A stretch of 6,713 bases of DNA from the IMG/VR virus record IMGVR_UViG_2534682164_000011, positions 1 through 6,713 of that record. The stretch is one strand, 5' to 3'. Position 1 is the stretch's first letter, and each line of letters starts with the position of its first letter. The translations under genes and the position numbers were made by a program. The notes below the pieces were generated by a model, which was given only the letters and a program-made list of their open reading frames with translations, was not told where the DNA came from and did not search any database. This document shows positions 2,496 to 3,673 of the stretch, piece after piece. The stretch is from a virus (Duplodnaviria; Heunggongvirae; Uroviricota; Caudoviricetes).

Positions 2496-2915
2496 TTATT
2501 CCGGTGGGGGATTATCTTTAATCCTGCCTCTCAAATATTTTTCTACATACTCATCGATTTCTTTTAGCCGGACTTCAAATAGCTCAATCATTCGTTGTTG
2601 TTCTGAGCCCGGTAGCTGGTTAAACAACTCAAGAAGTTTTCGTTGGGATTCATTTAACCACAATTCAGAAGATTCCTGTTCTCCAAAGAGGAGCTCAGGA
2701 GGAGATATGCCAAGTGCCTTTCCCAATACGACAGCGTCATGTACTCCAACATTTCTGCTGCCCGCCTCATAGTTACCTATACGCGATTGCGTCCATCCGC
2801 AGATTTCAGCAAGTTTTCCTTGAGATAAACCAAGCTTCTGCCTGCGCTCTTTAAGACGCATTGCAATTTTGTCATTGAGCCTACTAGCGGCAATTTTTTC
2901 GTTTTCTTTTTCCAT
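2496..2915 (-). CDS. Prophage repressor, XRE-family HTH, DicA/RacR-type (139 aa, no peptidase domain)
   Basis: ORF with AAGGA SD 4 nt upstream of the ATG. HTH region LGLSQGKLAEICGWTQSRIGNYEAGSRNVGV; C-terminal segment LLELFNQLPGSEQQRMIELFE resembles the DicA-type C-terminus as recalled. Divergent from a Cro-like gene. Too short to carry an S24 LexA-like autoprotease domain. Confidence 0.8.
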   Translation of the reverse strand: MEKENEKIAASRLNDKIAMRLKERRQKLGLSQGKLAEICGWTQSRIGNYEAGSRNVGVHDAVVLGKALGISPPELLFGEQESSELWLNESQRKLLELFNQLPGSEQQRMIELFEVRLKEIDEYVEKYLRGRIKDNPPPE

Positions 2916-3011
2916 TGCATCCTTGTATCACGAATCGTGATTTACATAAAACACAAAACAGCTTGGCTATATAACACAAGGTGTGTTTAAAATTGTCATC
3001 GGAGGTTTTCA
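2916..3011. promoter_or_regulatory. Divergent promoter/operator region between repressor and cro-like gene (OR-like), with two 15-bp palindromes at 2927-2941 (ATCACGAATCGTGAT) and 2973-2987 (AACACAAGGTGTGTT)
   Basis: 96-bp intergenic region. A perfect 7-1-7 palindrome and a perfect 6-3-6 palindrome, both fitting A(A/T)CAC-N5-GTG(T/A)T. Candidate rightward promoter elements TTGGCT (2963-2968) and TTTAAAAT (2986-2993). GGAGG SD at 3001-3005 for the cro-like gene. Confidence 0.55.
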
Positions 3012-3254
3012 ATGAACAAAATTTCAACATATCGAAAACAGCTTGGGCTGTCTCAAAGACAACTTGCTGTTCAGTTAGGGTGGATACAAAGCCGACTGGC
3101 AAATTACGAAGCAAATTTTCGTACCCCTGGACTAGAGGAGTGCAGAAAAATTGTTTCTACCCTTAATCGGCTTGGCGCTCATTGTGGACTTGACGATGTA
3201 TTCCCCCCAGACGGTAAGCATAGCGAAAACAGCATAGGAGCGGTTGATTCATGA
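3012..3254 (+). CDS. Cro-like small HTH regulator (XRE family, 80 aa)
   Basis: Strong SD GGAGG 6 nt upstream. HTH motif LGLSQRQLAVQLGWIQSRLANYEA is paralogous to the repressor's HTH. First gene of the rightward operon; its stop overlaps the next gene's start (ATGA at 3251-3254). Confidence 0.75.
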   Translation: MNKISTYRKQLGLSQRQLAVQLGWIQSRLANYEANFRTPGLEECRKIVSTLNRLGAHCGLDDVFPPDGKHSENSIGAVDS

Positions 3255-3673
3255 AAATCAGGCATGAGCACATCGAATCAGTGTTGTTAGCCCTGGCAGC
3301 CGAAAAAGGGCAGGCGTGGGTCGCTAACGCAATTACTGAAGAATATCTGCGCCAGGGGGGCGGCGAATTGCCCCTTGTACCAGGCAAGGACTGGAACAAT
3401 CAGCAGAATATCTATCACCGTTGGTTGAAAGGTGAAACGAAAGCGCAAAGGGAAAAAATTCAGAAACTGATCCCTGCGGTTCTGGCAATTCTTCCGCGCG
3501 AGCTGCGTCACCGACTCTGCATCTTCGATACCCTGGAACGCCGTGCATTACTGGCGGCGCAGGAAGCGTTGAGTACGGCAATTGATGCGCATGATGATGC
3601 AGTCCAGGCCGTTTACCGGAAAGCGCATTTCAGCGGCGGCGGGTCTTCCGACGATTCTGTCATTGTTCATTAA
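3251..3673 (+). CDS. ydaT: YdaT-like protein (Rac-prophage type; CII-like position; family reported toxic when derepressed), 140 aa
   Basis: Translationally coupled to the cro-like gene by ATGA overlap. The protein (MKIRHEHIESVLLALAAEKGQAWVANAITEEYLRQGGG...) closely matches my recollection of E. coli K-12 Rac YdaT; this is memory, not a search. Confidence 0.75.
   Translation: MKIRHEHIESVLLALAAEKGQAWVANAITEEYLRQGGGELPLVPGKDWNNQQNIYHRWLKGETKAQREKIQKLIPAVLAILPRELRHRLCIFDTLERRALLAAQEALSTAIDAHDDAVQAVYRKAHFSGGGSSDDSVIVH

Follow-up and report, generated by a model that had tools for sequence, protein, structure and literature searches.

The window, by which we mean the whole stretch of 6,713 nucleotides that was analyzed, carries a block of prophage genes between two insertion sequences (Table 1). 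Bases 1 to 838 are part of an LRR gene of the core chromosome and match, in 4,227 E. coli genomes, a chromosomal gene annotated as "leucine-rich repeat domain-containing protein"; to the right of this fragment, the IS630-family element forms the left border of the remnant and cuts the leftward early operon. The DUF1391 gene is the sole member of that operon remaining in the window, and its product is 88 to 90% identical to K-12 YdaF and YdfA (by BLASTP). Prophage homology to E. coli VL40 spans positions 1992 to 6036 of the window, and neither an integrase nor an excisionase was found in the window. The gene order is repressor, cro, ydaT, an O-like gene, and a DnaC-like gene (families assigned by Pfam, NCBIfam, and PHROGs), and all six prophage open reading frames from the repressor through ydaV are intact. 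In all likelihood, the window holds the region that switched a Rac-like lambdoid prophage on or off, the prophage having since decayed to a remnant of ~4 kb. The record HE616528.1, which we take to be Shigella sonnei 53G, matches the source genome at 99.98% identity over the window.

YdaV is 82.7% identical to K-12 YdaV, and YdaU matches K-12 YdaU in two blocks (95% and 89% identity; BLASTP in both cases). YdaU has an in-frame extra middle domain of 114 codons (DNA positions 4200 to 4576) that is absent from K-12 YdaU and matches phrog_1347, a PHROG of unknown function. A search for iterons in ydaU returned only short, weak repeats. Membership in a defense system was rejected, as a PADLOC search yielded just generic HTH matches (e.g., R-M control proteins and capH).

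Table 1. Features of the window, with predicted regulatory sites placed among the genes
Feature	Position	Strand	Remarks
IS630-family insertion sequence	839..1991 (ends approximate)	-	transposase ORF 859-1890; Pfam DDE_3 and HTH_23
DUF1391 gene (ydaF/ydfA-like), 51 aa	2035..2190	-	Pfam DUF1391, 1.3e-28
Leader of predicted PL transcript	2191..2364	-	bases 2203-2354 76% identical to K-12 Rac
PL, predicted leftward early promoter	2371..2399	-	-35 TTGACA (2399-2394), 17-nt spacer, -10 TTTAAT (2376-2371)
Predicted left operator AACACAATTTGTTTT	2375..2389		within PL spacer/-10; one mismatch to AWCAC-N5-GTGWT; half-sites invariant in 18 loci, spacer variable
Predicted left operator AACACGCAATGTGTT	2398..2412		overlaps PL -35 by 2 nt; perfect palindrome arms
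Intrinsic terminator	2447..2465	-	AGCCCGCTATCAGCGGGCT followed by T run; 8-bp stem with 6 GC pairs (terminator scan)
Immunity repressor (CI analogue), 139 aa	2496..2915	-	XRE-type HTH, residues 21-75; helical C-terminal region, 89-133
Predicted right operator ATCACGAATCGTGAT	2927..2941		adjoins repressor start, OR3-like position; perfect 7-bp arms; invariant in 18 loci
Predicted middle right operator AACACAAAACAGCTT	2950..2964		overlaps PR -35 by 2 nt, OR2-like position; 23 bp from both neighbors
PR, predicted rightward early promoter	2963..2993	+	-35 TTGGCT (2963-2968); -10 within TTTAAAAT (2986-2993), 17- or 19-nt spacer
Predicted right operator AACACAAGGTGTGTT	2973..2987		within PR spacer, OR1-like position; perfect arms
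Cro analogue, 80 aa, XRE-type HTH	3012..3254	+	Pfam HTH_3, residues 6-52; first gene of PR operon
YdaT-box TTGATTCATGAAAATCAG (TTGATT-CATGAA-AATCAG)	3244..3261		spans cro stop and ydaT start; one mismatch to TTGATT-N6-AATCAA
ydaT, CII-like transcription factor, 140 aa	3251..3673	+	Pfam YdaT_toxin PF06254, 44.4 bits (cut-off 21)
ydaU (DUF1376), O-like replication initiator, 399 aa	3686..4885	+	PHROG "primosomal protein", "replication initiation O-like"
ydaV, DnaC-type helicase loader (lambda P analogue), 248 aa	4892..5638	+	NCBIfam PRK12377, 504 bits, above cut-off
DUF977 gene	5653..6036	+	Pfam DUF977; 3' end disrupted by the IS600-like IS3-family element
IS600-like IS3-family element, right border of remnant	~6021-6713		Pfam rve; sequence beyond 6036 matches IS600 elsewhere in the VL40 genome

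The repressor lacks an S24 autoprotease domain and is not a LexA/CI-type autoproteolytic repressor, a group marked by a C-terminal S24 fold with a Ser/Lys dyad and by an Ala-Gly cleavage site in a linker. Pfam found HTH_3 alone (4.6e-13), with no match to Peptidase_S24 (PF00717). AlphaFold predicts helices throughout (mean pLDDT, 87), including the C-terminal 64 residues, and the Foldseek matches of the model were HTH domains only (C.AhdI, P22 C2, and 434, at an rmsd of about 1 A, and Stl), with neither a LexA nor a CI C-terminal domain among them. Among the matches listed, 120 homologues had lengths of 91 to 202 aa and only HTH domains, S24 being found in none; the longest, at 202 aa, carries an N-terminal extension. 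An earlier sequence-only reading, which had called the repressor short and devoid of an autoprotease domain, was borne out in its testable parts. Its label "DicA/RacR-type" held for one half: the repressor is 28.7% identical to K-12 DicA over 129 aa (residues 14 to 135; E = 3e-14 by BLASTP), and the similarity is full-length, extending beyond the HTH into the C-terminal LLELFxxLPxxEQ helix, whereas K-12 RacR gave no BLASTP match. The NCBIfam DicA model aligned with residues 15 to 133 at 57 bits, below its cut-off of 101. By these comparisons, the repressor is a DicA relative in a paralogous subfamily, not a DicA orthologue, and it fits the DicA/GfoR class of short lambdoid repressors (an XRE-type HTH, about 120 to 160 aa, and no S24). 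A terminator placed 30 nt past its stop codon is predicted to make the gene monocistronic and to insulate PL.

Divergent from the repressor lies the Cro-like gene, preceded by a GGAGG Shine-Dalgarno sequence (3001 to 3005). As the earlier reading had described, it is coupled to ydaT by an ATGA overlap, which the ORF coordinates and the sequence itself place at 3251 to 3254 (ATG, 3251 to 3253; TGA, 3252 to 3254). Neither K-12 YdaS nor DicC gave a BLASTP match to Cro, and the nearest solved structure was 28tn_A, a "lambda repressor-like protein" (E = 8e-15). The HTH domains of Cro and the repressor are 45% identical. Because their recognition helices nearly match (QSRIGNYEA and QSRLANYEA), Cro would be expected to compete with the repressor for the same predicted operators. 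An identical (100%) Cro is also paired with a repressor ~60% identical to that of the window, next to (C/T)TCAC-type operators.

YdaT differs from its K-12 counterpart at only four residues (K4R, F13L, T65A, and I77V; 97.1% identity over 140 aa by BLASTP), matches PDB entries 3c4r and 8bt1 along its full length, and falls in PHROG 163, "CII-like transcriptional activator" (1e-36). Its translation retains H56, R57, and W58, which function in DNA binding, and L107 and A110 of the tetramerization helix (PMC11879457). Published work describes YdaT as a tetramer that binds DNA at a defined box and activates repressor transcription, and footprints and activation data have been published for both K-12 and CP-933P. 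At a tolerance of up to one mismatch, the only match to TTGATT-N6-AATCAA in the window is the YdaT-box at the start of ydaT, which is invariant across 18 loci; K-12 has ATGATTCATGAAAATCAA at the equivalent place, where it is footprinted by YdaT (PMC11879457). YdaT is best regarded as a counterpart of CII and not as a toxin in the classical sense.

To locate candidate operators, we searched the 6.7-kb window for AWCAC-N5-GTGWT with at most one mismatch. All four matches sit in two regulatory gaps; the chance expectation was 0.75 matches, and four were reached in 3 of 200 shuffles. Five lambda-like operators are predicted, three between the repressor and cro and two at PL, and neighboring sites are spaced 23 bp apart in both the right and the left sets. 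Across 18 related loci, none of the 45 half-site positions varied, compared with 8 of 25 spacer positions (Fisher P = 1e-4) and 22 of 182 other noncoding positions (P = 4e-3). In the left operator at 2398 to 2412, the arms AACAC/GTGTT are constant across these loci and the N5 spacer occurs in five forms; in the right operator at 2973 to 2987, only the central base (2981) varies. The middle right operator is the weakest of the five, with a good half-site on the left only, which is invariant. The same layout recurs in relatives from Salmonella, Klebsiella, and Serratia, with repressors 58 to 83% identical to that of the window. There, a CAC-N5-GTG site occupies intergenic positions 12 to 26, like the operator at 2927 to 2941, and the placement of the site at 2973 to 2987 is also shared with distant relatives. 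The operator flank covaries with the repressor recognition helix, QSRIG occurring with AACAC and SGxSRxA with (T/C)TCAC.

Promoter positions were predicted by consensus matching. The putative PL has 11 of 12 consensus matches, making it the top site on either strand between 2300 and 3300, and a TTGACA beside an operator recurs in the Salmonella, Klebsiella, and Serratia relatives. The putative PR resembles PL in geometry, with an ambiguous -10 register; transcripts are predicted to begin near 2998 (+) for PR and 2364 (-) for PL. Among the 18 loci compared, 12 have TTGACC or TTGACT as the PR -35, and the Klebsiella and Serratia relatives have TTGACA, but the -35 is TTGGCT in Shigella-type loci; because of this departure from TTGACY, PR could be weak there, and derepression may then be less harmful than in K-12. 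The same consensus scan gave only weak candidates for a repressor maintenance promoter and for a YdaT-dependent leftward promoter inside cro (e.g., GAGACA-N17-TATGTT at 3054 to 3026). The leader of the predicted PL transcript is kept in Rac-like prophages bearing unrelated immunity cassettes; its fold was no better than that of shuffled sequences (z = +1.65), and Rfam returned nothing significant in the window.

The immunity region is a mosaic, as the earlier reading had suspected from the contrast between its repressor and cro and the Rac-like genes from ydaT onward, and the joints can be drawn at nucleotide resolution. The alignments to K-12 RacR, YdaS, YdaT, DicA, and DicC that it had proposed agree, with RacR, YdaS, and DicC unmatched. 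The foreign segment runs from about 2355/2368 to 3244, and K-12 homology resumes at 3245; the right-hand joint thus falls within the YdaT-box. Judged from these alignments, an exchange brought in the repressor and cro together, as one cassette. At least five unrelated repressor/cro pairs (that of the window and four others) are joined to a Rac-type ydaT at the YdaT-box. With its sharp bounds, from the PL -10 region to the YdaT-box, the locus is a clean example of lambdoid immunity-module exchange.

The cassette is present in 153 of 5,426 complete E. coli genomes. Pairwise dN/dS is about 0.1 for both the repressor and ydaT, a signal of which most built up in active phages, and the repressor, cro, and ydaT are real, conserved genes. 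The region from 2000 to 3700 is 100% identical in four other assemblies, in which ydaU is interrupted by an IS, and 99.7 to 99.9% identical in two more; the repressor/cro/ydaT trio is intact even in such IS-riddled Shigella-type loci. Two related assemblies carry a 1-bp frameshift in ydaT next to an intact repressor, so retention of the repressor is independent of an intact ydaT. No genuine repressor-null locus with an intact ydaT was seen among the loci compared. One candidate natural knockout with a split repressor was rejected, as its cro and ydaU are also fragmented and it looks like an indel-prone assembly; two apparently repressor- and cro-less loci were rejected as well, their DNA being 100% identical to the window and the absent gene calls being annotation gaps.

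Several characterized systems share this arrangement. K-12 Rac has the same prophage backbone and gene order, a repressor divergent from a cro-like gene, and a YdaT-box over the ydaT start codon. It differs in its RacR (158 aa) and YdaS (98 aa), for which BLASTP detected no similarity to the repressor or Cro of the window, in having a 22-nt ydaS-ydaT gap where the window has an ATGA overlap, and in its operators and the ydaS-internal reverse promoter PracR4, which are not conserved here. In Qin, DicA is likewise short, without S24, and divergent from a small cro analogue, which is likewise followed by a YdaT-family gene, the remnant YdfX (E = 2e-5); DicC is of the P22_Cro/DicC type, whereas Cro of the window is an XRE HTH protein. 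The PaaR2/YdaS/YdaT region of CP-933P in E. coli O157:H7 is a CI/Cro/CII-analogue circuit like the one predicted here. It has been dissected experimentally, with OR and OL operator sets, bistability, addictive behavior, a leftward promoter where cro meets ydaT that YdaT activates, and the YdaT box consensus TTGATT-N6-AATCAA. However, PaaR2 heads a paaA2-parE2 toxin-antitoxin operon that is absent from the window, the YdaT of CP-933P shares only about 30% identity with the Rac type, and the CP-933P operators are 18-bp repeats unrelated to those of the window. Lambda itself has the same logic and geometry: its repressor and cro diverge, PR is covered by three right operators at intervals of ~23 bp and PL by left operators, and the second PR gene encodes a CII-type activator whose site is at its own gene start. 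Unlike the repressor of the window, lambda CI (237 aa) has an S24 autoprotease and is RecA cleavable, and the lambda proteins and operator sequences are unrelated to those found here. The probable prophage switch in the window is an ordinary, widespread instance of an already known type.

We consider it highly probable that the module is a lysis/lysogeny switch with CI, Cro, and CII analogues. The repressor, whose helical C-terminal part would serve in oligomerization, would bind the AWCAC-N5-GTGWT operators over PR and PL, silencing both cro-ydaT-ydaU-ydaV and the leftward operon, and Cro would compete with it for these sites. Once produced from PR, YdaT would bind the box over its own start codon and, if it works as in K-12 Rac and CP-933P, would then drive transcription leftward, in the direction of the repressor gene. 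Because the repressor cannot cleave itself, release from repression would need an antirepressor or stochastic switching. A repressor that is not cleavable need not be one that is not inducible, as antirepressors inactivate relatives of this class (PMC3121763, PMC10448788): Rem lifts repression by DicA, and the 136-aa Gifsy repressors of Salmonella are not cleaved during induction but inactivated by the binding of LexA-controlled antirepressors. By their published description, these Gifsy proteins, GfoR and GtgR, belong to the same class of ~136-aa repressors without a cleavage motif. With no antirepressor gene left in the window, the switch is probably locked "off" in the remnant. A tblastn search with K-12 Rem found no homologue in the fetched loci, which cover only parts of prophages, and LexA-controlled induction was rejected because CTGT-N8-ACAG never exceeded chance, whether in the window, across 25.6 kb from E. 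coli VL40, or across 41.6 kb from an O157:H7 relative. O157 Sakai prophages with repressors lacking a peptidase domain are not induced by mitomycin C. One of them, Sp10, occupies the same chromosomal site as the remnant but was rejected as direct evidence on this allele; because its unrelated repressor/cro cassette differs from that of the window, the Sakai result supports the repressor class only. A full-length O157:H7 relative carries predicted ORF6N and "antirepressor N-terminal domain" genes.

In K-12, RacR is essential and derepression of ydaS and ydaT is toxic, as the earlier reading had stated and the literature confirms (PMC5700373, PMC5700377, PMC11879457). Names and history invite a toxin-antitoxin or "toxin-repressor" interpretation, with YdaT as a dedicated toxin, Cro in the role of YdaS, and a repressor that neutralizes them: Pfam PF06254 is called "YdaT_toxin", RefSeq uses "toxin YdaT family protein", the K-12 papers call YdaS and YdaT toxins that an essential RacR keeps repressed, addictive behavior is known from the CP-933P immunity region, and the trio stays intact in Shigella-type loci where an IS cuts ydaU. 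We nevertheless regard this interpretation as very unlikely. In published work, YdaT forms DNA-binding tetramers, recognizes a defined box, and activates repressor transcription; PHROGs place it among CII-like activators, and its neighbors are ordered as in the immunity and replication regions of lambdoid phages. Neutralization would be transcriptional, not a matter of protein-protein binding, and the NCBIfam antitoxin models HipB, HigA, and MqsA score far under their cut-offs. An earlier test saw no toxin-antitoxin behavior, and Cro and CII are also toxic if overproduced (Jobling's letter). The K-12 toxicity is that of a CII-like transcription factor made in excess rather than of a dedicated toxin (PMC5917428, PMC8630535, PMC9986795), and it was ascribed in part to YdaS, which is absent from the window; K-12 YdaT is toxic in cells without Rac. 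At the other extreme, the locus could be an inert relic, neither regulated nor expressed, whose genes are intact merely because too little time has elapsed. The IS elements that truncate the prophage on both sides, the frameshifted ydaT and IS-split ydaU of relatives, and the shift of the Shigella-type PR -35 away from consensus all fit such decay. Yet the intact repressor-to-ydaV reading frames, the invariant operator half-sites, the low dN/dS, and the near or full identity of 2000 to 3700 in six assemblies (in four of them despite the cut ydaU) make it highly improbable, and the equally decayed Rac and Qin of K-12 keep working, essential repressors.

If the switch model is right, loss of the repressor would lead to expression of YdaT, whose 97% identical K-12 counterpart kills E. 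coli on overproduction, and of the intact replication genes in an element whose window portion has neither integrase nor excisionase. This would probably be harmful, and it is plausible by analogy with K-12 that the repressor is essential for the host. In Shigella sonnei it would then join racR and dicA of K-12 among the essential genes of prophage origin, with a bearing on essential-gene screens and prophage-curing attempts. More speculatively, and in our view rather doubtfully, the IS-bounded and apparently nonexcisable 4-kb remnant may persist in Shigella because it is self-addictive. A noncleavable repressor would restrain a PR operon whose products would kill a repressor-less cell, namely, YdaT plus the O-like and DnaC-like replication genes acting in situ. 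The change of the PR -35 from TTGACY to TTGGCT, the ydaT frameshift, and the IS insertions in ydaU could then be successive attenuation steps, and the YdaT-box could act as a fixed recombination joint that accepts the at least five unrelated repressor/cro cassettes.

For annotation, genes named "toxin YdaT family protein" and "helix-turn-helix protein", as found in thousands of E. coli and Shigella assemblies, are predicted to form a complete lambda-style switch. What is new here is the set of predicted operators and promoters, which provides a concrete, directly testable model. As about 19,000 blocks of the assembly collection list exactly this Cro protein, an operator map, once validated, would apply widely.

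The three genes of the switch lie exactly where the sequence-only reading had placed them, and its observation and nearly all of its interpretation are correct. The cro stop codon overlaps the ydaT start codon as ATGA (3251-3254), the arrangement on which the proposed coupling of the two genes was based. The locus is ordinary: the module is of a well-understood kind, and this allele of it, although uncharacterized, is very common. Its cassette (the exchangeable repressor/cro block) was present in 153 of 5,426 complete E. coli genomes, and the assembly collection has ~19,000 blocks that list the exact Cro protein. 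New from our analysis are a predicted operator/promoter model, nucleotide-level cassette boundaries, and a recurrent joint at the YdaT-box, the published YdaT-binding inverted repeat.

Features of the immunity region (window positions); operators and promoters are predictions
Feature	Position	Strand	Details
Left operator	2375-2389		AACACAATTTGTTTT, pattern match
Left operator	2398-2412		AACACGCAATGTGTT, pattern match
Leftward promoter (PL)	2399-2371	minus	TTGACA-N17-TTTAAT, 11/12 consensus, best promoter match in region
Intrinsic terminator after repressor gene	2465-2447	minus	rated good
Repressor gene	2496-2915	minus	ORF, 139 aa; Pfam HTH_3
Right operator	2927-2941		perfect palindrome ATCACGAATCGTGAT
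Middle right operator	2950-2964		half-site copy AACACAAAACAGCTT, between the two palindromes
Rightward promoter (PR)	-35 2963-2968; -10 within 2986-2993	plus	-35 TTGGCT; -10 within TTTAAAAT, register uncertain; geometry identical to PL
Right operator	2973-2987		perfect palindrome AACACAAGGTGTGTT
Cro-like gene	3012-3254	plus	ORF, 80 aa; Pfam HTH_3
ydaT-like gene	3251-3673	plus	ORF, 140 aa; Pfam YdaT_toxin PF06254, above gathering score

We compared the proteins by BLASTP with those translated from K-12 Rac and Qin. The repressor matched DicA (28.7% over 129 aa; E = 3e-14) and had no match to RacR, so that of the earlier "DicA/RacR-type" label only the DicA part stands. Cro matched neither YdaS nor DicC. 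YdaT is 97.1% identical to its K-12 counterpart (four substitutions: K4R, F13L, T65A, and I77V), YdaU aligns in two blocks (95% and 89%) around an extra middle domain, and YdaV is 82.7% identical. DNA homology to K-12 agrees with the proteins, ending at ~2354 and restarting at 3245. The suggested mosaic immunity region, with a repressor and Cro distinct from RacR/YdaS and Rac-like genes from ydaT onward, is thus borne out, with no near-identity to RacR or YdaS in pairwise comparisons covering RacR, YdaS, YdaT, DicA, and DicC. The NCBIfam DicA model aligned nearly end to end with the repressor, at 57 bits against a cutoff of 101. DicA similarity below the cutoff, together with the missing RacR match, identifies the protein, on sequence criteria, as a DicA-class relative that is neither DicA itself nor RacR-like.

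The repressor had also been read as having no S24 autoprotease domain, and this holds: Pfam found no Peptidase_S24 match in the repressor, Cro, or YdaT, and the AlphaFold model of the repressor is all helical (mean pLDDT, 87; C-terminal helices 89-99 and 103-133). Foldseek returned XRE HTH domains alone (C.AhdI, P22 C2, 434 repressor and Cro, and SaPI Stl), with no LexA or CI C-terminal domain among the matches. All 120 listed homologues, from Salmonella, Serratia, Klebsiella, Citrobacter, Yersinia, and others, have HTH domains alone and are 91 to 202 aa long. In a 26-sequence alignment, the best conservation outside the HTH was C-terminal (F98-Q100-L101-P102 ... R116-L117-x-E119-x-D121-x-Y123-V124).

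Gifsy repressors are uncleaved and are inactivated by antirepressors (PMC3121763), and DicA is relieved by Rem (PMC10448788). Mitomycin C did not induce those lambdoid prophages of O157 Sakai that have no peptidase motif in their repressors (PMC2669165); the cassette of Sakai Sp10, however, is a different allele from the window's. We found no LexA box in the window or in related E. coli prophage loci and no Rem homologue in the related loci searched. A full-length O157:H7 relative with the window's cassette carries ORF6N and "antirepressor N-terminal domain" genes, which are candidate antirepressors only.

The 96-bp repressor/cro intergenic region contains two perfect palindromes, and the three predicted right operators are set at 23-bp intervals, a lambda-like spacing. 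The pattern AWCAC-N5-GTGWT, with at most one mismatch, matched four times in the whole window (0.75 expected by chance; four reached in 3 of 200 shuffles). Two matches are the intergenic palindromes; the predicted left operators, 23 bp apart and just downstream of the repressor terminator, flank PL. A promoter consensus search could not place the repressor maintenance promoter. Two independent checks support these predicted assignments. Variation among 18 related loci spared all 45 half-site positions (hypergeometric P = 0.002) but affected 8 of 25 central-spacer positions (Fisher P = 1e-4 for half-sites versus spacers) and 22 of 182 other noncoding positions, and the left palindrome kept AACAC/GTGTT across five different spacers. 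More distant relatives in Salmonella, Klebsiella, and Serratia (repressors 58 to 83% identical) have a CAC-N5-GTG palindrome at the same intergenic positions (12-26), a second within the TTGACA/TTGACC-N17 promoter spacer, and another beside a leftward TTGACA. The operator flank also covaries with the repressor recognition helix (QSRIG with AACAC; SGxSRxA with [T/C]TCAC). The PR -35 is TTGGCT in the window and Shigella-type loci, but the remaining 12 loci of the 18 (L003 and L012-L022) have TTGACT or TTGACC there; TTGGCT may be a promoter-down change in a decayed copy.

The Cro and repressor HTHs are 45% identical, with recognition helices QSRLANYEA and QSRIGNYEA, respectively, as expected for a Cro that competes for the repressor's operators. 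The nearest solved structure to Cro is 28tn_A, an 82-aa "lambda repressor-like protein." In three related loci (L004 [PP818812.1], 5514-6243; L005; and L041), a 100% identical Cro is paired with a 129-aa repressor (~60% identical to the window's) and (C/T)TCAC-N5-GTGA(A/G)-type operators; oddly, one identical Cro occurs with two repressor/operator types. One carrier of this variant was deposited as "Actinobacillus phage vB_Apl-pPE4," but it carries an early region of the E. coli Rac kind (RecE, RecT, Kil, and YdaT), which makes the host assignment look doubtful.

The right mosaic joint with K-12 falls within TTGATTCATGAAAATCAG (3244-3261), where K-12 has ATGATTCATGAAAATCAA. At least five different repressor/cro cassettes join a Rac-type ydaT at the YdaT-box: K-12 RacR/YdaS, the window type, the 129-aa repressor variant with its identical Cro, a pair of DicA/DicC type (identity to the K-12 proteins, 62% and 74%, respectively), and the pair of O157 Sakai Sp10. 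Relative to the 129-aa variant, the joints lie exactly at the cro ATG and at 2367/2368, in the -10 element of PL. With joints at the PL -10 and the YdaT-box, the exchangeable unit consists precisely of PL/OL, terminator, repressor, OR/PR, and cro. The Sp10 repressor (L031, 14353-15106) is also 139 aa long and its Cro 84 aa, both unrelated in sequence to the window's pair; this Cro likewise ends ...VDS-stop across the YdaT-box and overlaps ydaT by ATGA. The cassette at Sp10's site differs among O157:H7 strains. Beside unrelated immunity cassettes, E. coli and Salmonella keep a ~170-nt leader (2191-2364, minus strand), which separates the predicted PL start from the DUF1391 gene; in Klebsiella and Serratia it is kept in part. 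Fold prediction gave nothing significant for this leader and Rfam had no match to it; a nut-like site within it is possible.

PHROGs classes YdaT as a CII-like activator. The protein matches both solved YdaT structures over its full length and retains H56/R57/W58 and L107/A110, which are required for DNA binding and tetramerization (Wons et al., PMC11879457; on YdaT, see also Jobling, PMC5917428, and Jurenas et al.). The K-12 box was footprinted in the same study and activates leftward transcription toward racR. The CP-933P box consensus is TTGATT-N6-AATCAA (PMC9986795), and Serratia relatives have CTGATT-TATGGA-AATCAA over the ydaT ATG. The locus is most probably a lambda-style bistable switch in three parts: a noncleavable repressor of the DicA class, a Cro of XRE type, and, as the CII-like establishment factor, YdaT, which would act through the box over the start codon of its own gene. 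Two draft assemblies (L010, 7567-7989; L011, 6712-7134; window ~3288) have a 1-bp ydaT deletion (GTGTTGTTAGCC to GTGCTGTT-GCC) that shifts the frame after codon 13; both retain the repressor, and in L011 repressor and cro are intact.

Whether the repressor is effectively essential in this background, as had been suggested, we consider close to an even call. K-12 YdaT, to which the window's YdaT is 97% identical, is lethal to cells without Rac; both RacR and DicA are essential proteins of K-12, and the immunity region of CP-933P behaves addictively. The remnant also appears to lack the escape route that Rac excision gives K-12. The repressor-cro DNA is also intact in all distinct neighborhoods sampled, even where an insertion sequence splits ydaU, although physical linkage alone could explain such co-retention. 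Against essentiality, or neutral, are the TTGGCT rather than TTGACY -35 of Shigella-type loci, the retained repressor in the two ydaT-deletion assemblies, and the contribution of YdaS to toxicity in K-12 Rac, a component that the window lacks.

Prophage DNA is confined to ~1992-6036 and retains DUF1391 (ydaF-like), repressor, cro, ydaT, ydaU (by family, an O-like initiator), ydaV (a DnaC-type loader), and a truncated DUF977 gene cut on the right by an IS600-like element; the window has no integrase, excisionase, kil, or antirepressor gene. On the left, an IS630-family element (839-1991) truncates a core chromosomal LRR gene (1-838) found in 4,227 of 5,426 E. coli genomes. Positions 835-6713 are 99.98% identical to HE616528.1, which we take to be Shigella sonnei 53G and in which further prophage genes (Rha/ASH and DicB-family) flank the same IS630-family element. 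By these different flanks, the window's genome has undergone an IS630-mediated rearrangement or deletion, with loss of the rest of the leftward operon.

The extra in-frame YdaU domain (114 residues, ~172-297; window 4200-4576), absent from K-12 YdaU, matches PHROG 1347 (unknown function; E = 3e-20). In E. coli VL40, the RefSeq annotation splits ydaU into two pseudogene fragments, although in the window the gene has an open frame of 399 aa, and 319 blocks of the assembly collection list an identical protein. In the otherwise identical assemblies L032, L035, L038, and L039, an IS3-family insertion (window ~4400 equivalent) splits ydaU, and repressor, cro, and ydaT are still 100% identical to the window's.
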